A DNA stretch of 64,000 nt from an uncultured Bacilli bacterium (lineage in GTDB: Bacteria > Bacillota_I > Bacilli_A > RF39 > UBA660). Each line of letters begins with the position of its first letter. The first letter of the stretch is position 1. The translations under genes were made by a program, and so were the position numbers. The notes below the pieces were generated by a model that worked only from the letters and a program-made list of their open reading frames with translations, ran no database searches and had not been told where the DNA came from. Positions 15,569-28,030 of the stretch are shown in pieces. Location of the stretch: assembly GCA_963931185.1 (NCBI GenBank), contig OZ006981.1, forward strand, positions 295,910 to 359,909, in the 5' to 3' direction.

Positions 15569-15698
15569 TATCTAAAACAAATAATAAAATAAAAGATTTT
15601 GTTTTCATGAAAATTTATAATTAATTTTAAAAAAATAAAAGATCGTACCTTATATTTTATAAGTAACAATCTTCTACTAAAATTATTTAAAAGTATCT

Positions 15699-15731
15699 TT
15701 TTGAATATCAGGTACAAAAAGATACATTTAA
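15699..15731. terminator. Bidirectional hairpin terminator between the HipA-like gene and tRNA-Ser
   Basis: GTATCTTTTTG...CAAAAAGATAC inverted repeat flanked by T/A runs. Confidence 0.45.
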
Positions 15732-15765
15732 TAAATATATTTTTCTAAAAATAATATCAAAATAA

Positions 15766-15856
15766 TGGCGGAGACAGAGGGATTTGAACCCTCGCACCAG
15801 TTTCCCAGTCTACACCCTTAGCAGGGGCGCCTCTTCGGCCTCTTGAGTATGTCTCC
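15766..15856 (-). tRNA. tRNA-Ser(GCU)
   Basis: 91-nt cloverleaf with long variable arm, anticodon loop CTGCTAA, encoded CCA. Acceptor stem GGAGACA/TGTCTCC. Confidence 0.85.
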
Positions 15857-16145
15857 AGCTGACTAATTAATTATACCTTAAATTAGTAATCATAGTCAAC
15901 TATTAAATTCTTTTTTAATATTATTTTGTTATCAAAATAATATTAAAATAAAAATAACACTAACTTAAATAAATAAAAGATATAATCATATTATTAATAA
16001 ACTAATCAAAAAATCATTTCAACTACTAAATAGATAACTATAATTAAAAAATAATATAAATTCAATTTAATTCATTATATATTTACAAAAAATTATAATA
16101 AAATATTTTCACAAATATAATTAAATTATCTTTTCAAAAAAAGAA

Positions 16146-16192
16146 AACTACTTTTACTTTTATTTCAATGTAGTTTTTATTTAATACAAAAA
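16146..16192 (-). terminator. Rho-independent terminator downstream of the split tRNA-Lys 3' half
   Basis: AAACTAC...GTAGTTT hairpin followed by a T-run on the minus strand. Confidence 0.4.
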
Positions 16193-16211
16193 ATTATTCT
16201 ATAACAATAAA

Positions 16212-16260
16212 TGGTGGGGCGTTAGGGATTCGAACCCTAGACCCACTGATTAAGAGTCAG
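16212..16260 (-). other. 3' half of the disrupted host tRNA-Lys(CUU) gene, including the 13-bp att core (16248-16260)
   Basis: Minus strand reads CTGACTCTTAATCAGTGGGTCTAGGGTTCGAATCCCTAACGCCCCACCA. This is a T-arm, acceptor 3' strand and CCA that pair perfectly with the 5' half at 26172-26198. Confidence 0.8.
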
Positions 16261-16404
16261 AGGGCTTACTTCCCTTTTTCTAAGGCTCCACCATATTGTC
16301 AAAAAACTTAAGCAACTTATTTTTCCCTTATTTTACGGGGCTTTGCTTGGTTTGTTGTATTTACTATAGCATTTTTTAGTTGGCTCTACAATAGCCTTTT
16401 TTTT

Positions 16405-16446: not shown

Positions 16447-17562
16447 TTAATTGATACTCAATGCACCATTTAACATGTTAGCAACCTCGGTTCTATTTGC
16501 TTGGAAAATGTGAGAGTAAATGCCTGTTGTTACTGCCATAGAAGAATGACCCATTCTTTCTTGTATCAATTTTGTGTGAACACCTAGTGCAATTTGTAAA
16601 CTTGCTGAACTATGTCTCAATGAGTGAAAGTTCATTTTTGGTAGTCCATATTTAACTGCTACTTTTTGAAATATTTTGCCACAAGTGGTTGGATACATAG
16701 GTTTCCCGTCTTTTGCTAGGAACAATTTATTGTTTGCTTTCCAATTATTTGATAAAGATAACTCCTCTTTGTAGGCTTTTAATATCTCAATAGTTGTATC
16801 GGTTAATACCATTTTTCTTGTTGATGTATCGTTCTTTGTTGCCTTTTCTACAATTTCGCCTTTAATAACATCTAGCGATTTATTGATAGTTAATACTTTG
16901 GTATCAAAATCAATATCGTTCCAAGTTAATGCCAAAATCTCACTTCTTCTTGCTCCCGAGTCTAGTGCTAGAACAATAAGTGCTTGATATTTTAGACACT
17001 CATTTTTTAACCCATTTAATAATGTATGTATTTGCTCTAGGTCGTAACACTCGGCAAGATGTTTTTCTTTTTTGGGTCTAGGTATATCAATATTAGGGTT
17101 AGTTTCAAGTAGTTTCCATTTAACGGCTTGTGTAAACATTAAATTGATTAAGTTGTAATAATGTAATAAAGTGTTATTTGTTACAACTTTTTTTCTTGTG
17201 CCATTTTTTAATTTTTTATATAGTTCCATTAAAGTAAAAGTTTCAATATCTTTTAGTTGCCAATTACCAATATAGCCATTGATTTTTTCTAACATTGACT
17301 TGTATCCGTCCAAAGTTTTTACACCGACATTTTCTTCACAATAGTTACGAATAAAGAAGTTCCCAAAATCTTCAAAGGTCATATTTTTGCTATCAACAAC
17401 AAAGCCACCTTTTGCATATTGTTGCTTGATTTCAAACTCTCTTGTTTCGGCTTGTTTTTTCGTTCCCTCAAAAATCTCCGTTTTTCTCTTTCTTTTTCCG
17501 TCTATATTGTAGCCAATTTCTGCTATTATTTTATATTTATTTTTTGATAGTTGTTTTATCAT
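16447..17562 (-). CDS. int: Site-specific tyrosine recombinase (phage/ICE-type integrase)
   Basis: N-terminal arm-binding-like domain (KNKYKIIAEIGYNIDGKRKRK). C-terminal catalytic HSLRHSSAS...HSSMAVTTGIYSHI (R, HxxR, Y). GGAGG RBS before MIKQLSK. Confidence 0.85.
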   Translation of the reverse strand: MIKQLSKNKYKIIAEIGYNIDGKRKRKTEIFEGTKKQAETREFEIKQQYAKGGFVVDSKNMTFEDFGNFFIRNYCEENVGVKTLDGYKSMLEKINGYIGNWQLKDIETFTLMELYKKLKNGTRKKVVTNNTLLHYYNLINLMFTQAVKWKLLETNPNIDIPRPKKEKHLAECYDLEQIHTLLNGLKNECLKYQALIVLALDSGARRSEILALTWNDIDFDTKVLTINKSLDVIKGEIVEKATKNDTSTRKMVLTDTTIEILKAYKEELSLSNNWKANNKLFLAKDGKPMYPTTCGKIFQKVAVKYGLPKMNFHSLRHSSASLQIALGVHTKLIQERMGHSSMAVTTGIYSHIFQANRTEVANMLNGALSIN

Positions 17563-17635
17563 TTTTCGTTCCTCCAATCATTTGATAAAACAATCTCTAT
17601 CTACTTATAATTATACCATATTTTCCTTGTTTTTC

Positions 17636-17833
17636 CTAGTAAAATAGAGATGTTTTGCTTTCTTTTTCTTGTAATTTTTCTACCCATGTATTGATACTTT
17701 TTAAATCAAACATAATACGATTTCCTATTCTAAAGTGTGGTATTTTTTTCTCTCTTACCAACTTTCTAATTTCCGATATAGATATTTTTAAATAGTTTGA
17801 TAAATCTTTTAAATTACATATTTCTTTTGTCAT
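17636..17833 (-). CDS. xis: Excisionase/Xis-family small HTH DNA-binding protein
   Basis: 65 aa; ISISEIRKLVREKKIPHFRIGNRIMF matches the excisionase-family HTH; GGAGG RBS; directly upstream of int. Confidence 0.7.
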   Translation of the reverse strand: MTKEICNLKDLSNYLKISISEIRKLVREKKIPHFRIGNRIMFDLKSINTWVEKLQEKESKTSLFY

Positions 17834-18375: not shown

Positions 18376-18861
18376 ATGACTAACAAAGAACCAAGAACTG
18401 TTTTTATAGGAAGTGTTGAAGAACTTAAGGAGGTTATAAAAGAAGCCCGTGAATTAGAAAAAAATAAAAATGCAATGAAAGAGAAAGTAAAAGTATCTAA
18501 TAAAGACTTAAAAAGATTTGAAGAAGAATATAAGATTTGGATAGAGAAAATCAATAATGCTATGAAAAAACATAACTCTGATAAGTTTGATAGCGAAAAT
18601 AGTGATTTAGAAGATATATTACTAATCGACTATGAGTTATATCTAGGCAAAAAAATGGAAGATATTTTCAATGAGTATGAATATTTATATGATAGCATAG
18701 ACGATATGATTTATATTATGAAAAATACAGGTTTTATAATTGCACCATTTATAATAAGTGATAGAACTATGTTATTAGATACTATTGAAAGTTTTGAAAA
18801 TGGCGATTATGATGTTGAAGATGGTATTAAAAGAGAATATTTTAATTTAAATAACTATTAA
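18376..18861 (+). CDS. Island cargo protein A, unknown function (acidic C-terminus)
   Basis: 161 aa from MTNKEP with an AAAGGA RBS; followed by a hairpin terminator at 18868-18898. Confidence 0.55.
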   Translation: MTNKEPRTVFIGSVEELKEVIKEARELEKNKNAMKEKVKVSNKDLKRFEEEYKIWIEKINNAMKKHNSDKFDSENSDLEDILLIDYELYLGKKMEDIFNEYEYLYDSIDDMIYIMKNTGFIIAPFIISDRTMLLDTIESFENGDYDVEDGIKREYFNLNNY

Positions 18862-18867
18862 AATAAA

Positions 18868-18898
18868 GGTTATCTTATATGAGATAGCCTTTTTTCGT
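18868..18898 (+). terminator. Hairpin terminator after cargo gene A
   Basis: GGTTATCT-tatatg-AGATAGCC stem followed by TTTTTT. Confidence 0.5.
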
Positions 18899-18906
18899 GG
18901 TATAAT
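18897..18906 (+). promoter_or_regulatory. Extended -10 promoter element (TGnTATAAT) for cargo genes B-C
   Basis: GTGGTATAAT, the same 10-mer as at 21248-21257; lies 10-20 nt upstream of the B gene RBS. Confidence 0.5.
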
Positions 18907-18927
18907 TAAGGCATGGAGGCTTTAATT

Positions 18928-20076
18928 ATGGGAAAAAGACACAATACCTTATCGGACGATATTTTTCGCAATAGCAAGTATATAAACACTTTAGAACAAG
19001 CACTTGAAATTGACGACTTTAGAAAAGAATACAAAGAACAATATGACATTATGCTTGAAGTATATAAAATGCTTATCACAATAAACAATATAATATTCGC
19101 TGATAGTAATAAATCTATCAATGATAAAATATACGAAATGGAACTTGAGTTTGAAAAAATTGTTGGGGAACAAGTTGACGAAGAAAGCGACGAAAAAAGA
19201 AAACATAAATATAGTGTAAGAACTTTAAAAGGCTTGATAGATAGTAATACGAGATACTTATTCAATAAGTTTGTTGAGTGGTATGATTATTTAATGAACT
19301 TTAACAAATTAGATATGGTTAAGCAAGAGGTCGAAGAAGAAATGAAAAGACTTGAAAGCATTGACTTTGACAAAGTTGTTAAAGGTGGTCTACTTTATGA
19401 GAAAAATAAAAATAGCAACTATAAAATCTATACAAGCAAACTAGATTATCTATTCCTTAACAATAAAGATGTATGGAAAGAATACAAGCAAGACTTTTAC
19501 GACACATACGGAATCCAACTAACGGATCGAGAGAAAAACGATATTTACTTTGTATTTAAGTTAATTGCTTATGCAAATAATGGTATTGTAAAATTACTAT
19601 TTCAAGACGAAATAAAAGACTTTGAATTAACCGAAAAAGACAATGCCGAAGATTATTTCAAAGCCTATCTAACATCTTTAAATATAGATATAAAAGATAA
19701 TAGAAAGTTTATGAGTAAAGCCGACATCTTTTTAAATGAGTTGCTGATAACTAACAATGTTATTATAGAACAATTAGAAAATGACACTAAAAACGAGCAT
19801 ATCATTGATATATCACATATTGAGGTTGAGCCTTTTGTTGCAAATTATGACTTATACTTTTTCTATGTAAATATGGAAAAGATAACTACGGGCTTATATG
19901 AGTTTACTATCAAAACTGATGTTATAGTTAAGATTATCAATGACTTAAAAGAAATCTATAATCTTATGTATGACAATGTGCCTACTATCACGGACGAAAA
20001 ACAAGTGCAAGAGGCTTTTTCTAAAATACAAAATATAATTGATAGAAATAAGAAAATGTTTGAGAGGTTGAGTTAA
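18928..20076 (+). CDS. Island cargo protein B, unknown function
   Basis: 382 aa from MGKRHNT with a GGAGG RBS; no nucleotide-binding or nuclease motif recognised; stop overlaps the gene C start (TAATG). Confidence 0.6.
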   Translation: MGKRHNTLSDDIFRNSKYINTLEQALEIDDFRKEYKEQYDIMLEVYKMLITINNIIFADSNKSINDKIYEMELEFEKIVGEQVDEESDEKRKHKYSVRTLKGLIDSNTRYLFNKFVEWYDYLMNFNKLDMVKQEVEEEMKRLESIDFDKVVKGGLLYEKNKNSNYKIYTSKLDYLFLNNKDVWKEYKQDFYDTYGIQLTDREKNDIYFVFKLIAYANNGIVKLLFQDEIKDFELTEKDNAEDYFKAYLTSLNIDIKDNRKFMSKADIFLNELLITNNVIIEQLENDTKNEHIIDISHIEVEPFVANYDLYFFYVNMEKITTGLYEFTIKTDVIVKIINDLKEIYNLMYDNVPTITDEKQVQEAFSKIQNIIDRNKKMFERLS

Positions 20077-20795
20077 TGAAATCAATAAATGTTGTTAAGA
20101 TGTTAGAGGAAGAAGAAAAAACAAAGGCAAAAGAACGAAAAAGCACGGATGCTGAAACACTATTAAAAGATATAATATGGAATTGTATTGATAACTTTAT
20201 AATGCCCTATGTGAAATCAAAAATTGAAATAACGGAACACGAGCAAGTCGTATATGAAGATAACCTTTTTAATTTATTAGTTAAGCATAATGACTTTACG
20301 GAAGAAGATAGTATCGCCTTTGACGAGGAAGAAAGAAACTTTTTAAATACAAGCAATAGGAAAGTTAAAGTTGATATGGGCAAACGATATGCTGAAACAA
20401 TTATAAGAACACATACACTTGACGAAAAAGTGGAAGAATATTATATCAAGTATACAAAGCCTATGCTTAAGGAATTACAAAAACAAAATGTTATTATCTA
20501 TGATACTGAAGCATTAGATAATAAAACAAAAAGTGCTACCACTAAAATAGATAAATTAGTAAAAAAGATTATTACTGATAAAGCCAAAGAAAGCAAGATG
20601 TATTCGCTTTTTAAAAAAATATTCGGTAATGAGTTTATAGAAAAAAATGATGTTATCTTTAGTGATAACAAAGAACAAAAGGAAAAGTTTTGTAATTGTA
20701 TCAAGACTTATATAGAAAATAACTACGATAATATTGACTATAAAGCCATTGATAACATTGACTTTGCTGATATGAACGAGTTTAAACTCGATTAA
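20076..20795 (+). CDS. Island cargo protein C, unknown function
   Basis: 239 aa; translationally coupled to B; followed by a strong terminator. Confidence 0.6.
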   Translation: MKSINVVKMLEEEEKTKAKERKSTDAETLLKDIIWNCIDNFIMPYVKSKIEITEHEQVVYEDNLFNLLVKHNDFTEEDSIAFDEEERNFLNTSNRKVKVDMGKRYAETIIRTHTLDEKVEEYYIKYTKPMLKELQKQNVIIYDTEALDNKTKSATTKIDKLVKKIITDKAKESKMYSLFKKIFGNEFIEKNDVIFSDNKEQKEKFCNCIKTYIENNYDNIDYKAIDNIDFADMNEFKLD

Positions 20796-20797
20796 AG

Positions 20798-20822
20798 AGG
20801 TTTTAAGCCTCTTTTTTGATGT
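20798..20822 (+). terminator. Rho-independent terminator after cargo gene C
   Basis: AGAGG-ttttaag-CCTCT hairpin followed by TTTTTT. Confidence 0.6.
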
Positions 20823-20924: not shown

Positions 20925-21176
20925 TTACTTGTTTTCGTCTATGGGAGCAAATAACTCTCTTATATCTATACCTAAAATCTTTGCTAAATGGTAAAGACTA
21001 CCTACTGAAATAGTTTGAAATACTTTGTCGCTTTCGAGGTTGCCAATAAAACTTAAAGCATAGTTGCTTGCCTCGGCTAATCGTTCTTGGGTAAAGCCTT
21101 TGTCTTTTCGTAATTTTTTCAAGTTTTGACCTATCACATAGTAGATATAATTTTCATCGTTTTTGTTGTCATTCAT
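20925..21176 (-). CDS. XRE-family (Cro/CI-type) HTH transcriptional regulator
   Basis: LKKLRKDKGFTQERLAEASNYALSFIGNLESDK HTH; divergent from the 21279 operon. Confidence 0.75.
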   Translation of the reverse strand: MNDNKNDENYIYYVIGQNLKKLRKDKGFTQERLAEASNYALSFIGNLESDKVFQTISVGSLYHLAKILGIDIRELFAPIDENK

Positions 21177-21247
21177 AGCCTCACCACCTATATATAAATT
21201 ATCTCAAAAATAAAGTTTTAACTTTATCTATGGTTCGTGGATAAAAT

Positions 21248-21257
21248 GTGGTATAAT
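21248..21257 (+). promoter_or_regulatory. Extended -10 promoter (TGnTATAAT) of the XRE-divergent operon
   Basis: TGTGGTATAAT sits 22 nt upstream of the gene D ATG. Confidence 0.55.
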
Positions 21258-21278
21258 GTTAGTGAAAGGAGTTTGTTT

Positions 21279-21737
21279 ATGCTAACTAAAGATATTTTTG
21301 TAAAAGGTTTAACTACTGTTACCAAAGAGGATTTGAAAACTTATTTAGTCTTTGTTCAACAGTATTTTGATGTAATAGATGAATATTGTCTAAAAGTCCA
21401 AGAGACTCAAAGTGCTATCTTAAATCAAAAGCCAGATACGAATGACCGAGAGGCTGTAGAAGTTTTAATTATGGATAAGTTTAAAAGTGATGAAATGAGC
21501 AGATTATTAAAGGACTATGATAGAACAGAAAGATTAACAAAAGAGTTAGAATTATTGAAAAGAAATTTTAGAACATCAGAAAGAGATATTTTATGGAATT
21601 TAGAATCTTTTGACCGAAAAAGTAATTATAGACTTTATGGTTGTCTAAAACAAGTTGAACGTGATTATGAAGAACTTGAGACATTATTAACAGAAGTCGA
21701 TAAATTCACTACTGAGAGTCACAACTATCACTTTTAA
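21279..21737 (+). CDS. Island protein D, unknown function
   Basis: 152 aa from MLTKDIF with leader GAAAGGAGTTTGTTTATG. Confidence 0.5.
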   Translation: MLTKDIFVKGLTTVTKEDLKTYLVFVQQYFDVIDEYCLKVQETQSAILNQKPDTNDREAVEVLIMDKFKSDEMSRLLKDYDRTERLTKELELLKRNFRTSERDILWNLESFDRKSNYRLYGCLKQVERDYEELETLLTEVDKFTTESHNYHF

Positions 21738-21753
21738 CTAAGGGAGTTTGTTT

Positions 21754-22257
21754 ATGAAAAGAAGAAGTTATTTTAAATTGACTGGTAAAGAAAAACAAAT
21801 GGTAAATAATATTATGTTAAAACAAGAGGGTTATTTTAGTATGTTTAATATATCTATTATGACAATATCAGTATTGTGTATATTTATATCTATTTCGCAA
21901 AATAATATAATATTCGTATTGATAATATCTCTTATTATGTTTTTGGTGTTAAGATTTAAAATGTTTTATTATTATTTAAAGCATACTGAAATAAATTTTG
22001 ACATCAATAGTAAAGAAAACAATGAGATGTCAAAATATACTGATAATCAAACAAAGTTTATTTTAGGAATATTTGGGGTAGTAATGGTAATCGGTGCTAT
22101 GGGGTTGCTTGGTGTTTTTGATAACAATGACACTGGTGGAAGTTCCGACAATGGGTATAAAACTAATTGCTATCCAAGAAGTGATGGAAAAATATGTTGC
22201 ACATCTTGTAAAAAGACGAGTTATGGCGATATAGGTTGTGGAACAACCTGTAATTAA
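21754..22257 (+). CDS. Two-TM membrane protein with Cys-rich C-terminal tail
   Basis: Leader AGGGAGTTTGTTTATG nearly identical to that of gene D; two hydrophobic helices; C-terminus CYPRSDGKICCTSCKKTSYGDIGCGTTCN carries 7 Cys. Confidence 0.5.
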   Translation: MKRRSYFKLTGKEKQMVNNIMLKQEGYFSMFNISIMTISVLCIFISISQNNIIFVLIISLIMFLVLRFKMFYYYLKHTEINFDINSKENNEMSKYTDNQTKFILGIFGVVMVIGAMGLLGVFDNNDTGGSSDNGYKTNCYPRSDGKICCTSCKKTSYGDIGCGTTCN

Positions 22258-22275
22258 AAAGGAGGGAATTAAAAA

Positions 22276-22572
22276 ATGGCTTTAATTAAGTGTAGTGAGT
22301 GTGGCAAAGAGATAAGCGACAAATCTAAAAAATGTATTTATTGTGGCAACCCTATTACAATAATTGCAATAAATAGACATTGTGAATTGTGTGGTGGAGA
22401 AATAGACTTAAATAATTGTGAATGTTTAAGATGTGGTTTTACTGATATATCTCTTTTGAATAAGAAAACAAGGGACGAAAGTCTTAAAAGGTTTAGGGAA
22501 AAAATGGAAGAAATAGCAACAGGAAGTTCTAAAAGTTTTAGAAAGAGAGAAAAAGAAAATGAAAAAAATTAG
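22276..22572 (+). CDS. Double zinc-ribbon protein
   Basis: CSECGK...CIYCG and CELCGG...CLRCG (two CxxC pairs in tandem); AAGGAGGG RBS. Confidence 0.55.
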   Translation: MALIKCSECGKEISDKSKKCIYCGNPITIIAINRHCELCGGEIDLNNCECLRCGFTDISLLNKKTRDESLKRFREKMEEIATGSSKSFRKREKENEKN

Positions 22573-22930
22573 TTTAGTATTATTATGTGGGGTTATTTTA
22601 TTAGGTGTATGTGGTTGTGGTAGTAAAGAAGAAAAATTAAATGAAATGGAAAATATCATTTATAATTCAATGATTAAAACAAGTAAAACAGCCGATAGCC
22701 CATCTGATTTAAGGTTAATTGAGGTATTTAAAAAAGATGGTAATTTTTATATAAATCTTAATAAAGGAGATGGAACATATTGCTATTATGTGAACACATC
22801 AAGAGAAGAATTATCTTATGAATATGGCACTTGTCATATAGCAGAATTGCAAAACGAAACTTATGATGATGTTTCTATTTCAAAAGTAAATAATAAATAT
22901 AAAAAATATGTTGAGGATATGGGATTATGA
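22559..22930 (+). CDS. Lipoprotein, unknown function
   Basis: Signal peptide with lipobox LLGVCGC. Confidence 0.55.
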   Translation: MKKISLVLLCGVILLGVCGCGSKEEKLNEMENIIYNSMIKTSKTADSPSDLRLIEVFKKDGNFYINLNKGDGTYCYYVNTSREELSYEYGTCHIAELQNETYDDVSISKVNNKYKKYVEDMGL

Positions 22931-23751
22931 AAAAAAAGAAAATAATTGTTGGGATAGCATTGTTAGTAATAATTTGTGTAATATTATGTATAGTGTTTAT
23001 GTTCAATAAAAATAATGGTTTATTAGAGTTTGACAAAGTTATATCAAGTGGGACAAAAACGGTAGTTATTTTTGAAAATAATCAAGCCCAAGAAGAAAAG
23101 TTGAAAAATATTTTAGAAGAAAATAATGTCAATTTTATTTCTATTGATGTATCCAAATTAAAAGATAATGATAAAAATAAATTGAAAACGACATTAGACT
23201 TGGAAAACTTAACTACTTATTATGGAGCAATTATTGAAAATAATGATGTTTTACGAAAAATATACTTAAAAGATATTGAAACAAATGATAATGAAAAAAT
23301 TATGCAAATGCTTGCTTATTATGGGGTATTAGAAAACTCAAAAGAATATTTAAACGATTACAACTATAAAATGGGTGTTGAGGCACTTAATAATGGTCTA
23401 ATTTATAGTGCTAATAGTTACTTGAAAAGTGTCGATAAAGACTATAAAGATGTCAATGAATTATTAAAAGATAAAAGATTTTTTCTATTAAATAAATATC
23501 ATTATGATTACCCAGATAATATTAGAAAAATGACTTTTCAATATTTACCAAATGATAAAATATATCACGATAGCTTTGTTGGAGAAGAATACAATCAAAA
23601 AGCATATGTTAAAAATGATATTATTTATATATGCACTCGTAGTTGTGATAGTGAATATGCTAACACAAGAGAATTTTTACATATAGATTATGTTAATGAA
23701 ACAGAGTTAAAATTTAAGGAGTGGGATTTTGTTTTAAAAAAAGTTGACTAA
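22927..23751 (+). CDS. N-terminally membrane-anchored protein, unknown function
   Basis: MKKKKIIVGIALLVIICVILCIVF anchor plus a ~240-aa extracytoplasmic domain; ATGA overlap with the lipoprotein gene. Confidence 0.55.
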   Translation: MKKKKIIVGIALLVIICVILCIVFMFNKNNGLLEFDKVISSGTKTVVIFENNQAQEEKLKNILEENNVNFISIDVSKLKDNDKNKLKTTLDLENLTTYYGAIIENNDVLRKIYLKDIETNDNEKIMQMLAYYGVLENSKEYLNDYNYKMGVEALNNGLIYSANSYLKSVDKDYKDVNELLKDKRFFLLNKYHYDYPDNIRKMTFQYLPNDKIYHDSFVGEEYNQKAYVKNDIIYICTRSCDSEYANTREFLHIDYVNETELKFKEWDFVLKKVD

Positions 23752-23837
23752 CTTTATATAGGACGAGGCGACCGATTTTTGAAAAGTCAAGCCATAAATT
23801 ACTAAAGCCCACCCCGTGTATGTGTCTATATAAAAAT

Positions 23838-23868
23838 CAAAGTTGTGCGATGCACAACTTTTTTATAT
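23838..23868 (+). terminator. Rho-independent terminator ending the 21279-23751 operon
   Basis: GTTGTGC-gat-GCACAAC hairpin followed by TTTTTTAT. Confidence 0.6.
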
Positions 23869-24018
23869 TGTCAATAGGTTTGGTGCTGGAATATATGGGC
23901 TTGGTGCAACTTTAAGCACTACCATAGCAATTATACTATGCTTGCACTAACTCTTGTTAAATGCCTTATATTGCCTTAATATGAGGTGTTTTTTTATGCC
24001 TCGATCCGAGTGCTTGCT

Positions 24019-24110
24019 ACCCTATAAATTGATATAAGTATCTTTTGTATATTTTTGGTTGTTCTTGTTTCCTCTTAAGTAAGGGTAAGTGTTAGTGGCT
24101 ACCCTATAAG
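24019..24110. repeat. 12-bp direct repeat GCTACCCTATAA (x2, 80 bp apart) in an ORF-free, GC-richer region
   Basis: Copies at 24019-24030 and 24099-24110, upstream of the second Xis-like gene. Confidence 0.5.
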
Positions 24111-24129
24111 ACACGGGAGGTATGTATCA

Positions 24130-24294
24130 ATGAATTATTACACTACAAAGGAAATAAGCGAGATTTTAGGACTATCAATTAAGACTATTCAAAAGTTAAT
24201 TAGAACAAGACAACTAAAAGCATTTAAAATTGGTAATCGTTTCATAGTCGAAGAAAGCACACTAAAAGACTACATCAATGCAAGACAAGTATAG
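24130..24294 (+). CDS. Second excisionase/MerR-like small HTH protein
   Basis: 54 aa, MNYYTTKEISEILGLSIKTIQKLIRTRQLKAFKIGNRFIVEE; GGGAGG RBS; below the ORF-track size cutoff. Confidence 0.55.
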   Translation: MNYYTTKEISEILGLSIKTIQKLIRTRQLKAFKIGNRFIVEESTLKDYINARQV

Positions 24295-24372: not shown

Positions 24373-24771
24373 ATGGCAAAAGTTGATATGGAGCAAGCCT
24401 CGTGGCAAGATGTATTGCAAGCAATAAAAGAAAGCAATATCAATTATGGCAAAGACTATGACATTTATACTTATTATCACTATGACAATGGCAATATAGT
24501 TGGGGTTGTTTATGGTTGGTTTTATGATAGGTGCTTATACATTGACATTGTTTTTGTTAGTGCCGAGTATCGAGGCAAAGGAATTGCTACATCAATGCTT
24601 AAGAGAGTAATACAAGAAATAAAAAGCAAAGACATTGACAATATTATTGTTGAGTTGGTGCAATATAAAGGAAAATATCTACTTGCAAATATTCTTGTCC
24701 GTCTTGGTTTTTGTTTGCATAGTCTATATTACATCTTAAGGCAAAGAGTTATCTATTATATGTCGTTGTAA
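24373..24771 (+). CDS. GNAT family N-acetyltransferase
   Basis: VSAEYRGKGIATSMLKRVIQE acetyl-CoA-binding motif (R/Q-x-x-G-x-G/A). Confidence 0.65.
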   Translation: MAKVDMEQASWQDVLQAIKESNINYGKDYDIYTYYHYDNGNIVGVVYGWFYDRCLYIDIVFVSAEYRGKGIATSMLKRVIQEIKSKDIDNIIVELVQYKGKYLLANILVRLGFCLHSLYYILRQRVIYYMSL

Positions 24772-24931: not shown

Positions 24932-25450
24932 ATGAAAAAACAAGCAATAGGTTTTATCGTTGACGAACACGGAGTTGTTAATAAAGAGATATACATAGGC
25001 GACCGAGTTCGTATTATACGAGAAAGCCAAAGACAACATTTACAAGATTTTAAAAAGACAAATAAAAGCAAAACATATTGTAAGGTATTTTGTAAGGCAA
25101 GCGATATATTGGCAAGTCTTAATTTAACAGCAAGTGAATATAAACTAATTTTTGCTATGCTCGGTCATATCGGTTTTGCCGAGTTTAGTGGCTACCTTAT
25201 AAAAGTTCAATGCAATATGTTTTGTGGTTACTTAAACGGCGAGGAATTAAAAAGTATTGCTAATATGCAAGATAGGACATTTTGGCGAGCCATTGATAGT
25301 TTAGTAAAAAAAGAGATTATCGCCATTGAGAAAGTTGGACGAGAAAATCATTTTTTGGTTAATCCGTTTATATTTATGAAAAATGACGAAATAACTCGTA
25401 CCTTATTCAATTTGTTTTGTGATACAAAGTTCAATTATTTAAACGAATAA
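24932..25450 (+). CDS. Putative winged-helix replication/regulatory protein (RepL-like?)
   Basis: AGGAGG RBS 7 nt before MKKQAIGF; 172 aa. Family assignment is uncertain. Confidence 0.4.
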   Translation: MKKQAIGFIVDEHGVVNKEIYIGDRVRIIRESQRQHLQDFKKTNKSKTYCKVFCKASDILASLNLTASEYKLIFAMLGHIGFAEFSGYLIKVQCNMFCGYLNGEELKSIANMQDRTFWRAIDSLVKKEIIAIEKVGRENHFLVNPFIFMKNDEITRTLFNLFCDTKFNYLNE

Positions 25451-25494: not shown

Positions 25495-25752
25495 TTACTT
25501 GTCTATCTCTTTTTTGCTACTTAAGTAACTACGAATTATTGCTACTTGCACGGGGTTTTGTTCTTGTATTTCTTTTGCGAACATATACTTTAATTTTTCA
25601 AAATGTTTTTCTAAAAGTTTTCTATCTTTTTTTGATAGTTCGCACTCGTCTAGTATTTGACGAGTTGTTGCCATTTCAAGAACAATGTTTTTAAACTCCT
25701 TTGTAATAGTAAATTGTAAGTCTTTTAAGTTTTCAATATCTTTTTCGTCCAT
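25495..25752 (-). CDS. Small hypothetical protein
   Basis: 85-aa charged helical protein. Confidence 0.4.
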   Translation of the reverse strand: MDEKDIENLKDLQFTITKEFKNIVLEMATTRQILDECELSKKDRKLLEKHFEKLKYMFAKEIQEQNPVQVAIIRSYLSSKKEIDK

Positions 25753-25872: not shown

Positions 25873-25877
25873 CTTAT

Positions 25878-25913
25878 GATAATTTGTGATACTTTATGAT
25901 ACTTTTGTAATTT
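25878..25913. repeat. TGATA(A/C)TTT iterons (x3)
   Basis: TTATGATAATTTGTGATACTTTATGATACTTTTG; the same iteron family as 18019-18066 and 18248-18258. Confidence 0.5.
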
Positions 25914-26052: not shown

Positions 26053-26128
26053 TGGTGGATTGTTAGGGATTCGAACCCTAGACCCATCGATTAAGAGTCG
26101 ATTGCTCTACCAACTGAGCTAACAATCC
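26053..26128 (-). tRNA. tRNA-Lys(CUU), element-borne intact copy
   Basis: GGATTGTTAGCTCAGTTGGTAGAGCAATCGACTCTTAATCGATGGGTCTAGGGTTCGAATCCCTAACAATCCACCA. Perfect acceptor stem GGATTGT/ACAATCC, anticodon loop CTCTTAA, CCA encoded. Confidence 0.85.
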
Positions 26129-26158
26129 ATTTTTAAGGCTCCTTAACTTGGAACAACC

Positions 26159-26198
26159 GATTAAGAGTCAGTTGCTCTACCAACTGAGCTAACGCCCC
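26159..26198 (-). other. 5' half of the disrupted host tRNA-Lys(CUU) gene, including the att core copy (26159-26171)
   Basis: Minus strand reads GGGGCGTTAGCTCAGTTGGTAGAGCAACTGACTCTTAATC, then diverges into non-tRNA sequence (GGTTGTTCC...). Confidence 0.8.
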
Positions 26199-26272
26199 AA
26201 AATAAGCTACTAATAAATTATAACATATTTTAAAAAAAAGAAAAGACTTTATTTAAAAAATAATATAAAATC

Positions 26273-26572
26273 TTACAAATTACTATTTATCAATGTTTCT
26301 ATGTCCTTATCTGTATTGATATAATTATTACAAACAGTTTCTAAATATGATATATATTTCTCATTACTAGCAATAATTTCTTCAAATTTATTATACAAAT
26401 TTTTCAAATCATTAATTACTACATCACTTGTTTGAGATAACCAAAAATTTGGTATTTGATTAGCTTTAGTCTTAACATTATCAAACAATGTAGCAATATT
26501 TAAATTTTCTTTTTTTAATTCTGCTATTTTCTCCTTTAATCCATTGAAATCTATTTTTATATTACTTGTCAT
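26273..26572 (-). CDS. Small helical protein, WXG100/Lap-like (uncertain)
   Basis: 99 aa, predicted all-helical; sits next to a WXG100-like gene. Confidence 0.4.
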   Translation of the reverse strand: MTSNIKIDFNGLKEKIAELKKENLNIATLFDNVKTKANQIPNFWLSQTSDVVINDLKNLYNKFEEIIASNEKYISYLETVCNNYINTDKDIETLINSNL

Positions 26573-26873
26573 TATTACTTCTCCATTCTAAATTACTAGA
26601 CAAATCTTTATCAATATTTCCATGTTTAATCGCCATTTCTTTTAATAATTCTCCTTTCTCTATCATAAAAAGTTCTACTTCATTTATGCTCACTAAAAAT
26701 TCATTGTAATTTTCATAAAACATTTCAGAATCAATTCCATTCCATAAAGCTTTAATATCTTCGTTTGTTTTTTTCATATTATCAACAATATTTTTTAAGT
26801 TATTACCTTGCAAATTAAAAAAAGCTCCAATTTTGTATAATTCTTTACAATTTATTTTAAAAATATTTGCCAC
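26562..26873 (-). CDS. WXG100-family (ESAT-6-like) protein
   Basis: 103 aa with a central W-N-G (ALWNGIDSE) at about residue 43 between two predicted helices. Confidence 0.5.
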   Translation of the reverse strand: MANIFKINCKELYKIGAFFNLQGNNLKNIVDNMKKTNEDIKALWNGIDSEMFYENYNEFLVSINEVELFMIEKGELLKEMAIKHGNIDKDLSSNLEWRSNNDK

Positions 26874-28030
26874 TATTCTATTTCCTCCCTATAAAAAATA
26901 TTAGATAAAATTTTTTGATTATTCTCCATATCTAAATTACAGAACATATTAAAAAATTCTTTTGAATTTATAATTGGTAATAAATAGTTTCTTGAATCTC
27001 CATTAAGTATCTGTTCAGAACTAGTATTGTTGTTTTCTGCTACTACATCAATCATAGTTTTCAAAGCAGAAACACTATTAGAATCCAAATTATAAATATT
27101 TTTGCCTTCATATATATTTAATATTTTTTCTCTAAACCTAAATACATTATCACTTGAAATTGAATCTATATAATTTAAAGCATTATTAAAATAATTAAAG
27201 TTATTATAAAGAAGTTGTTGATTTTCTGCATTACTTATCAAAGAATTATAATCAGTATTATTAATATTTGCTATTTTTGTAAAATAAGAATTCAAAAACT
27301 CTATATTTTCTGAATTTATTAAATTTATATTACCAGAAGAATATAGTTTAACCAATATTTGTTTCAAAGCAGAAATATCCATATTAAGTAAACTTTTTTT
27401 CAATTCATCAGTTATATTAATAGAATTTAGTAATTCTTTTTTTACATTCTCTATTTTGATATCATCATTAACTATATCAAAAAAAGTTGAATTTGAAGCA
27501 GATAGAAACTTTGATAAGACAACCGATATTCCTATATAGTCTATCAAATTAAAATCATTAACGCCCATTTGATTAGAATTTATACTAGCATTATAAAAAT
27601 TATTATTAACTGTAGTATTGGCTTTTCTATACGAATTGTTAACTGAATTAGTCGTATAATCATTATTTATAACTTTATTATTAGAATATGACTCATCTAC
27701 CATAATCTGACTATTCTTACTATTATTAATACTATCGTTAATATTATTAATAGTCAAAATTATTGAATTAATAGCTGTAGACAAAGATACACAATAATTT
27801 TCTAGAATACCATATGAAGAAAAATATCTTAAAGCTGAACTGGTAATTCGTTCTGAAGTGAGATTGAGATTATTAACTCTTGACTTCCAATTAGAACATA
27901 AATCTGTTATAGAAGCAGAATTTAAAAATATTTCCTTTTCAGGTAATGAATTTAAATTCATTAAGTCTTCGCCGCTGTATTCAATATTCTCAGTATAATT
28001 CTGAATAGAATTTTCGTTCATAAAAACCAC
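26873..28030 (-). CDS. Asn/Ser-rich low-complexity protein, possible secreted substrate
   Basis: 385 aa with no enzymatic motif; first gene of the three-gene minus-strand unit that includes the WXG100-like genes. Confidence 0.4.
   Translation of the reverse strand: MVFMNENSIQNYTENIEYSGEDLMNLNSLPEKEIFLNSASITDLCSNWKSRVNNLNLTSERITSSALRYFSSYGILENYCVSLSTAINSIILTINNINDSINNSKNSQIMVDESYSNNKVINNDYTTNSVNNSYRKANTTVNNNFYNASINSNQMGVNDFNLIDYIGISVVLSKFLSASNSTFFDIVNDDIKIENVKKELLNSINITDELKKSLLNMDISALKQILVKLYSSGNINLINSENIEFLNSYFTKIANINNTDYNSLISNAENQQLLYNNFNYFNNALNYIDSISSDNVFRFREKILNIYEGKNIYNLDSNSVSALKTMIDVVAENNNTSSEQILNGDSRNYLLPIINSKEFFNMFCNLDMENNQKILSNIFYREEIE

Follow-up and report, generated by a model that had tools for sequence, protein, structure and literature searches.

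What is the function of a small operon of membrane and zinc-ribbon proteins that lies opposite a repressor-like gene in the genome of an uncultured gut bacterium? The locus occupies positions 20925-23868 of a 64,000-nucleotide (nt) stretch of an uncultured Bacilli bacterium of the RF39 lineage (contig OZ006981.1, positions 295,910 to 359,909), and we refer to the whole stretch as the window. The region consists of one minus-strand gene of 83 amino acids (aa) and five plus-strand genes, here called D to H. It sits inside a 9,911-bp integrative element that splits a tRNA-Lys gene, in a slot whose contents are exchanged between related elements. We favor, at a probability of roughly 40%, that the operon is an exclusion or defence-type envelope cargo module, which would block the DNA of phages or of related elements.

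The operon and its divergent regulator

The features of the region are as follows (TM, transmembrane).

20925-21176, minus strand: XRE, an 83-aa XRE/Cro-type helix-turn-helix (HTH) regulator
21198-21206, minus strand: candidate -10 element of the XRE gene, TGAGATAAT, read from sequence
21223-21245: operator-like dyad, TTTATCTA-N7-TGGATAAA, over the -35 position of both divergent promoters
21247-21257, plus strand: operon promoter with an extended -10, TGTGGTATAAT (TGnTATAAT at 21249-21257)
21279-21737, plus strand: D, a 152-aa acidic, helical, cytoplasmic protein
21754-22257, plus strand: E, a 167-aa protein with three TM segments, closed at its C-terminus by an extracytoplasmic six-Cys knob that ends in -TTCN
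22276-22572, plus strand: F, a 98-aa cytoplasmic double zinc ribbon with a basic tail
22559-22930, plus strand: G, a 123-aa lipoprotein
22927-23751, plus strand: H, 274 aa, an N-terminal anchor, a predicted thioredoxin fold without CxxC, a helical linker and a predicted lipocalin-like barrel
23839-23861: bidirectional intrinsic terminator (10-bp stem, then a T-run) that closes the operon

The five genes are tightly packed. D and E are 16 nt apart and E and F 18 nt, while F and G overlap by 14 nt and G and H by 4 nt. Good ribosome-binding sites lie upstream of the starts (GAAAGGAGTTTGTTTATG before D, AGGGAGTTTGTTTATG before E), and public gene calls on other contigs give five identical products of 152, 167, 98, 123, and 274 aa. 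The ratio of nonsynonymous to synonymous substitution (dN/dS) against diverged homologs is 0.21-0.46 for D, E, G, H, and XRE (about 0.24 for D). This shows purifying selection, and thus these are real functional genes. From the conserved extended -10 promoter to the strong terminator, D-H appear to form one transcription unit. The initial annotation had described a minus-strand XRE gene divergent from five tightly packed genes, and this arrangement is borne out. Its promoter is also present and conserved, but starts at 21247, one base before the 21248 given there, and a terminator does end the operon, at 23839-23861 where 23838-23868 had been proposed. The composition that it listed (a cytoplasmic D, a Cys-tailed membrane protein E, a zinc ribbon F, a lipoprotein G, and an anchored H) stands, except that E has three TM segments and not two.

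Promoter-like strings were not enriched in a generic scan of this 26% G+C DNA (56 found vs 64 expected), and therefore a single promoter match carries no weight. The evidence for the promoter is conservation: nine homologous intergenic regions (XRE types A, B, and C), otherwise very divergent, all have T(G/A)TGnTATAAT in this position; in locus L021 it reads TATGATACAAT. The ATTATC of the candidate XRE -10 is likewise kept in the intergenic regions of types A, C, and C', and type B (L004, L020) has ATTTTC. The TGAGATAAT at 21198-21206 on the minus strand is a plausible XRE promoter.

The XRE protein scores above the Pfam cut-offs for HTH_19 (38.7 bits, cut-off 30.2; 9.4e-10), HTH_26 (35.3 bits, cut-off 22), and HTH_3 (34.7 bits, cut-off 23), and it matches a transcriptional repressor family in PHROGs (2.9e-11). 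Wherever a homologous locus has sufficient flanking sequence, this gene and the operon are divergent. The dyad between them changes with the type of XRE. Its type A arms are perfect in L003, L006, L008, and L027, which encode a near-identical XRE, and the first spacer bases vary. In type B loci (XRE 57% identical) the arms are TCAAC/GTTGA, and in type C loci (XRE 49% identical) they are CACC/GGTG. The dyad centre ATTCG and the distance to the -10 are constant across the three types. Such co-variation of arms and regulator is the pattern expected of a cognate repressor-operator pair and supports local repression, so that the XRE control put forward in the initial annotation now has comparative support. 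Since an island-wide scan found the dyad once within the island, XRE looks local to the divergent pair; a role as master repressor of the whole element was considered and rejected on this single operator copy.

We infer that an XRE dimer binds the dyad and throttles both divergent promoters. On arrival of the element in an XRE-free cell, the operon would be switched on, and it would later settle to a low regulated level. The layout is an ordinary divergent switch as far as its sequence tells, similar to Cro/CI-type (XRE) switches and to the C-protein controllers of mobile restriction-modification systems in its HTH of about 80 aa, its back-to-back promoters, and a dyad over the -35 positions. 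A layout of this kind would imply negative autoregulation and an expression burst in a naive cell. Unlike those switches, it has a single dyad and not a tripartite operator, it has no opposing regulator, and its putative targets are envelope proteins.

A mosaic slot in a tRNA-Lys element

Nearly all genes of the window are encoded by the minus strand, and about 18-26 kb is the only interval in which the GC skew is reversed. A contig from another sample, L031, carries the same flanking genes with nothing between them and one intact tRNA-Lys, and is thus an empty site. It aligns with window positions 15569-16260 and 26156-26279, which gives an insert of 9,911 bp. The guess that the operon belongs to an island was therefore right. 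The ends of the element are these.

16212-16260: displaced 3' half of the host tRNA-Lys
16248-16260: attL core, the 13-nt GATTAAGAGTCAG, in the anticodon stem-loop of the host tRNA-Lys
26053-26128, minus strand: complete element tRNA-Lys(CTT) (ARAGORN; 73.6 bits with the Rfam tRNA model), which replaces the split host gene
26159-26171: attR core, an exact second copy of the 13-nt core
About 26159-26200: orphan 5' half of the host tRNA-Lys

The att core is the anticodon stem-loop itself, and insertion there therefore cuts the host tRNA in two. ARAGORN also calls an odd tRNA at 16212-16289, which is the attL chimera; it scores 32.2 bits with the Rfam tRNA model (threshold 29), and the orphan 5' half scores 25.6. 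The element does not rebuild its target tRNA. It leaves two halves and brings a complete tRNA-Lys, 90% identical to the host copy. In this respect it departs from tRNA-targeting tyrosine-recombinase islands and satellites similar to phage-inducible chromosomal islands (PICI), which rebuild the 3' end, whereas here a whole replacement tRNA accompanies an insertion in the anticodon loop. It otherwise shares several features with such islands: an integrase and Xis, an AlpA-like HTH, a weakly matched Rep-like protein and iterons, a size of about 10 kb, tRNA insertion, short direct repeats, and the coexistence of occupied and empty sites. No terS, capsid-redirecting or interference gene, primase, or relaxase was recognized, which again is unlike PICI-like satellites, and the four proteins searched in IMG/VR are absent from it.

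We compared the element with the contigs that carry the exact H or relatives of H, E, or D. They share a backbone. A recombinase, three acidic proteins of no known family (86-172, 382-387, and 239 aa), and the XRE gene on the opposite strand precede the slot, in this order. After the slot come a 54-aa HTH_17 (AlpA-like) protein, either GNAT or a Cys protein of 116 aa, the Rep-like winged-helix protein, and an 85-aa gene on the opposite strand. The slot itself holds different genes in different loci (ZnR, zinc-ribbon protein).

The window, L001, and L002: D-E-F-G-H
L003 and L005-L010: ZnR (59 aa, ribbon and TM segment)-G-H
L004: a 95-aa protein-G-H
L027, L041, and L042: ZnR (384 aa, multi-TM)-E-lipoprotein
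L029: E-ZnR (200 aa, ribbon, TM segment, and ectodomain)
L020: ZnR (132 aa)-H-G-like protein

DNA comparison places the breakpoints at gene boundaries (21278-81, 22538-51, 23741, 24362, and 25466-81), with 97-100% identity on one side of a breakpoint and none on the other. The slot between the XRE and AlpA-like genes thus reads as a mosaic of recurring parts that are swapped at gene boundaries. The five genes described at first as one operon are one unit here, but in the family they are two reshuffling sub-modules, a D-E pair and a ZnR-G-H trio, and not a fixed set. A string with a ribosome-binding site and spacer, AGGAGTTTG(T/A)TTT, precedes D (21264-21281), E (21741-21756), and the first slot gene of the sister loci (L003-L008, L020, and L027). 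Since mosaic breakpoints fall on this string, it may be a cassette crossover site. In L013, a short decayed zinc-ribbon start (MAMVKCKEWGKEM..., then a stop; 572-630) lies between the promoter and the intact ZnR gene, and it looks like the footprint of an earlier cassette replacement. L013 has no visible backbone and carries XRE with ZnR-lipoprotein-H-G-like between collagen-like and thioredoxin-reductase-like genes.

Could the operon be core machinery, with a role in the life cycle of the element such as sensing of induction, or help with exit or entry through membrane remodelling or a holin-like E? The slot is filled in every element variant and stands right after the sole repressor-like gene and before the AlpA-like and Rep genes, and the three TM segments of E would suit such a role. 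However, no slot gene is universal: L004 has no ZnR, most variants have neither D nor E, and several have no H. Moreover, a strong terminator stands between the operon and the AlpA-like and Rep genes, the module is also found away from the backbone, and no lysin, holin family match, or transfer gene was found with Pfam and PHROGs. We therefore consider a life-cycle role quite unlikely.

Far less probable still is that the operon is what remains of a decayed prophage lysis or structural module, a finding that the initial annotation had named among those that would overturn its reading. The setting in a small integrase-bearing island would fit it, and PHROGs gives one weak match to an Rz-like spanin (E = 0.006), but this match belongs to the 172-aa backbone protein and not to an operon gene. 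None of the five genes is broken; they evolve under purifying selection and are conserved across many assemblies. No match to a lysin, holin, capsid, tail, or terminase was found in Pfam or PHROGs, D-H in particular having no lysin catalytic domain and no holin or lysis family, and INPHARED returned no DNA or protein match.

The five proteins and their possible function

The topology of D-H was read with our hydropathy and lipobox script. D has no TM segment. Only 11 clusters of relatives were found for it. It occurs in four independent contexts, namely the window, L038, L040, and L045, and each time lies directly upstream of an E-like gene. In E, which has 24 clusters of relatives, the hydrophobic segments are at 29-47, 52-70, and 103-121. 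Because there are three of them, with positive charges before the third, the Cys-rich tail should face outward. The last 30 residues are nearly invariant (C-Y-x-R-x-D-G-x2-C-C-T-x-C-x-K-x2-Y-G-x3-C-x-T-x-C-N) and form the end of the protein. Among the relatives of E, this six-Cys knob always follows a TM segment, and it is also found on unrelated N-termini (P0104, P0105, and L021_108). In L038, genes for D, E, and a ZnR-TM protein are in an operon that ends with Tn916-type xis and int and lies beside portal, terminase, and protease genes, an arrangement that links the D, E, and ZnR genes to the integrase-side operon of a prophage. In L040 (1824-2323), two genes take the place of E: one of 95 aa with two TM segments, and one of 70 aa that joins a signal-like N-terminus to the six-Cys knob. 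This split points to an origin of E by fusion, or to a knob that can also be made as an exported peptide of its own. In spite of the split form, a reading of E as two separate genes was rejected, as full-length homologs of 163-174 aa are conserved.

The L040 arrangement raises the question of whether the knob might be a Cys-rich antimicrobial or signalling peptide, released or tethered, with the N-terminal hairpin of E and G providing immunity and H acting as a thioredoxin-fold chaperone. There the knob is a separate 70-aa signal-like gene next to a 95-aa gene that matches the N-terminal half of E, and in other proteins it is joined to unrelated N-termini. Lipoprotein immunity is known for lantibiotics and would be a precedent. 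On the other hand, family scans of the element turned up neither a double-glycine leader architecture nor a C39/ABC exporter, and no Lan or radical-SAM enzyme. By the same scans, it has none of the leader, exporter, protease, or modification genes that mark a class II bacteriocin or lanthipeptide cluster. H has lost CxxC, H and G mostly occur without E, and in most homologs the knob stays behind a TM anchor. A peptide system of this kind thus seems very unlikely to us.

F, too, has no TM segment. It scores above the Pfam cut-off for Zn_Ribbon_1 (29.8 bits, cut-off 25; 4.8e-07) and just under that for DZR (25.4 bits, cut-off 27.3; 1.6e-05), and eight of its nine Cys residues form four CxxC pairs, as expected of a zinc ribbon. 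Its first 12 residues (MALIKCSECGKE) and the first ribbon are common to the ZnR proteins of all sister loci. Those proteins usually go on into a TM segment, often with a GxW-containing ectodomain, whereas in F a second ribbon and then a basic tail come at this point. The signal peptide of G carries the lipobox LGVC/GC (MKKISLVLLCGVILLGVCGC), and the mature part has about 104 residues. G is identical or nearly so across element variants, and in L013 and L020 the gene after H encodes a G-like protein that shares its C-terminal motif.

H has a single N-terminal anchor (residues 6-24) and only 13 relatives among 1.84 billion representative proteins; no relative was found among the GTDB representatives. 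The nearer relatives are anchored proteins or lipoproteins of the same two-domain length, and one homolog (P0071) has a lipobox. An AlphaFold model from nine sequences has a predicted local distance difference test (pLDDT) score of 85 and replaced a three-sequence model that was poor in the C-terminal half. In the model, the N-terminal domain has a thioredoxin fold that has lost its redox motif, and the C-terminal domain is predicted to be a small lipocalin-like barrel. The three most distant relatives (P0080-P0082) keep CxxC as CSAC, CHWC, or CYFC, where H has FENNQAQEE; H and its close family have neither of the active-site Cys residues. Therefore, H cannot be an oxidoreductase. These distant relatives are anchored, similar to ResA, Etrx, or Bta-like thioredoxin-fold proteins, but H and its close family differ from that group in the missing Cys residues and in the added lipocalin-like domain. 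Redox-inactive thioredoxin-fold chaperone domains such as PDI b' and ERp29 are another comparison for H. No stretch of the wide H alignment was conserved enough to be used as a search query. The best viral match to H was a "lipoprotein" of a gut Siphoviridae phage, with E = 4e-3 only.

Searches of Pfam, PHROGs, NCBIfam, and PADLOC with D, E, G, and H gave chance-level matches only; in PADLOC-DB all matches had an E of at least 0.0045 and stayed under 15 bits. The E knob and D had no phmmer match among the PDB sequences. The only valid memberships are the XRE HTH, the zinc ribbon, the thioredoxin fold without a redox motif (from the predicted model), the lipoprotein, and the tRNA-integrating element. 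By these searches, the cargo proteins appear to belong to no described family, and three building blocks (the six-Cys knob, the redox-dead thioredoxin with lipocalin, and the zinc-ribbon membrane adaptors) are in no domain library. As none of the D-H products has a catalytic motif, they are probably binders.

What would a set of binders at the membrane do for a mobile element? The initial annotation had compared the operon to superinfection exclusion, abortive infection (Abi), and surface-modulation modules, an analogy drawn from its location and the type of its proteins. In the exclusion reading, D and F would stay in the cytoplasm, and the other three would act on the outer membrane face, where E would show its six-Cys knob, G a small lipoprotein domain, and H the redox-dead thioredoxin domain with the lipocalin-like barrel. 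The module would guard both the carrier cell and the element by stopping the entry of DNA from phages or related elements at the membrane, which is the weakest step of the scheme. Diversifying pressure from invaders would account for the mosaic slot. A precedent is Ltp of the Streptococcus thermophilus phage TP-J34, a lipoprotein from the lysogeny module that is tethered outside the membrane and blocks DNA injection (PMC3952083). Ltp-type proteins and other membrane-anchored superinfection-exclusion proteins of low-GC Gram-positive temperate phages are also small lipoproteins or anchored proteins on the outer membrane face. Their genes are beside the repressor and integrase region, as D-E-ZnR in the xis/int operon of L038 is, and they share with G a signal peptide with a lipobox; the H homolog P0071 has a lipobox as well. 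Unlike the Ltp type, the present system has five genes and not one, shows no homology to it, and is carried by a 9.9-kb element without phage structural genes; D-H matched no Ltp repeat domain in Pfam and no PHROG exclusion family at E ≤ 0.1.

Several points weigh against exclusion. The element has no recognizable phage or conjugation genes, and thus the target of exclusion is hard to name. If XRE holds the operon tightly off when the element is integrated, a standing exclusion would not be expressed. Simple surface blocking gives no role to D and F, which are cytoplasmic, and the strongly conserved Cys knob does not look like the diversification of an arms race. L021 carries the module (162 aa-E-like-ZnR-H with XRE) without a visible mobile backbone, between valS and tRNA-Arg/nrdD. 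D-H have no match to a Sie, Abi, exclusion, or defence family in Pfam, PHROGs, NCBIfam, or PADLOC. Scans of IMG/VR with H, E, D, and the 239-aa backbone protein found no relatives, which for the three operon proteins counts on the same side, as do the lack of a tblastn match to H in INPHARED and of a blastn match to the operon DNA among the INPHARED phages. The same DNA had no match among plasmids.

The same membrane display could serve the bacterium and not the element. As surface-variation or host-interaction cargo, swappable lipoproteins and binders might act in adhesion, ligand capture, or immune evasion. The products are small, membrane-tethered, and non-enzymatic, lipocalin-like barrels recur, samples from several cohorts have nearly identical G and H in spite of the mosaic slot, and the hosts are small-genome gut Bacilli. 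However, in a walled cell (a penicillin-binding protein, PBP, is present) these tiny ectodomains at the membrane would be under the peptidoglycan and poorly exposed, and a tight tie to an XRE switch and mobile elements would be more usual for functions that centre on the element. We regard surface cargo as unlikely.

We return to envelope exclusion, which we continue to prefer. In a wider form, which is possible but doubtful, the operon would represent an undescribed class of envelope exclusion or defence cassettes, built from a tethered six-Cys knob, a redox-dead thioredoxin with lipocalin, and zinc-ribbon membrane adaptors. These cassettes would be shuffled in the XRE-gated slot of new integrative, possibly satellite-like elements of ~10 kb, confined to uncultured RF39-like gut Bacilli, which split a tRNA-Lys and bring a spare copy. 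Small-genome gut Bacilli are abundant but uncultured, and almost nothing is known of their mobile elements and phage interactions. The locus offers a compact, delimited element with occupied and empty sites, a simple candidate repressor-operator pair, and tiny membrane-displayed proteins without known relatives that recombine as cassettes. If the cassettes do block the entry of phages or elements, they would be a new structural class of exclusion systems and would help to explain strain-level phage resistance in a part of the gut microbiota that is hard to study. Even if they do not block entry, two clean new domain families deserve to be defined, the six-Cys knob and the CxxC-less thioredoxin-lipocalin protein.

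Backbone and host of the element

The remaining features of the element are listed below.

16447-17577, minus strand: tyrosine integrase (Phage_integrase, 2.6e-26, and SAM-like N-terminal domains); the public call is 371 aa from 17562
17636-17833, minus strand: 65-aa Xis-like HTH_17 protein upstream of int; the identical gene in L001 carries PF12728
18018-18064, plus strand: iteron cluster 1, 10-bp T(G/A)TGATA(C/G), upstream of the acidic-protein operon
18376-20795, plus strand: backbone operon for three acidic cytoplasmic proteins of 161 aa, 382 aa (18928-20076), and 239 aa (20076-20795)
20794-20814: terminator of the backbone operon
24130-24294, plus strand: 54-aa AlpA/Xis-like HTH_17 protein
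24373-24771, plus strand: GNAT
24932-25450, plus strand: Rep-like winged-helix protein (weak matches to Rep3_N, 0.026, and to a phage O N-terminus, 0.03)
25495-25752, minus strand: 85-aa gene
25875-25901: iteron cluster 2, between the 85-aa gene and the element tRNA

The acidic-protein operon is kept in L001-L010, L029, and L042. In their longer forms, the three products are 172, 387, and 239 aa with net charges of -11, -20, and -8. Apart from the spanin match of the 172-aa protein, no match was found for them in Pfam, PHROGs, PADLOC, NCBIfam, the PDB sequences, or INPHARED; searches with the 387-aa protein included phmmer against the PDB sequences, which gave no match for the Rep-like protein either, and tblastn against INPHARED. 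The three acidic proteins are the best candidates for whatever mobilizes the element. The iteron motif T(G/A)TGATA(C/G) has eight matches against 0.76 expected, six of the eight in the two clusters, and these may be binding sites of the Rep or AlpA-like protein, or an origin.

The exact integrase protein is present in public metagenome-assembled genomes (MAGs). The sister loci L003, L004, and L005 (loci 94-2009), in which slot and backbone are near-identical, have a large serine recombinase (517-528 aa) and no tyrosine integrase and Xis. Since the serine recombinase takes the place of these two, the integration module has been swapped, which is a further difference from PICI-like islands. A second swap point follows the AlpA-like gene (24373-24771; L004, L006, L008, and L029), where either a GNAT acetyltransferase or a 112-116-aa protein with a C-terminal Cys cluster is found.

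The 378-nt non-coding spacer after H (23752-24129) is 85-99% conserved among element variants. It contains the operon terminator and a second hairpin with a T-run near 23964-23995, and it probably holds the promoter of the AlpA-like gene. The spacer had no Rfam match and an unremarkable folding z-score of -1.9, and over the whole island Rfam found no RNA family besides tRNAs.

Exact element proteins are found in MAG contigs of 1.0-1.4 Mb. The named relatives comprise Candidatus Alloscybalousia and Candidatus Onthousia, along with "uncultured Bacilli" MAGs from the guts of humans, rabbits, and chickens, and one NCBI MAG is labelled Mycoplasma sp. Genetic code 4 was rejected, as code 11 leaves the long genes intact and TGG codons are in use. 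The host genes include PBP transpeptidase, BacA, and Lon, and the host is therefore walled. A wall-less host with a plasmavirus-like enveloped virus was rejected on the presence of PBP transpeptidase and BacA, and an inovirus on the absence of a Zot-like ATPase. Just outside attR (26273-28030, minus strand) are two WXG100-like genes (99 and 103 aa; 22.6 and 16.9 bits, under the Pfam cut-off) and a gene for a 385-aa Asn-rich protein. Together they may encode type VII secretion substrates of the host. The empty site has this cluster as well, and the cluster therefore does not belong to the element.

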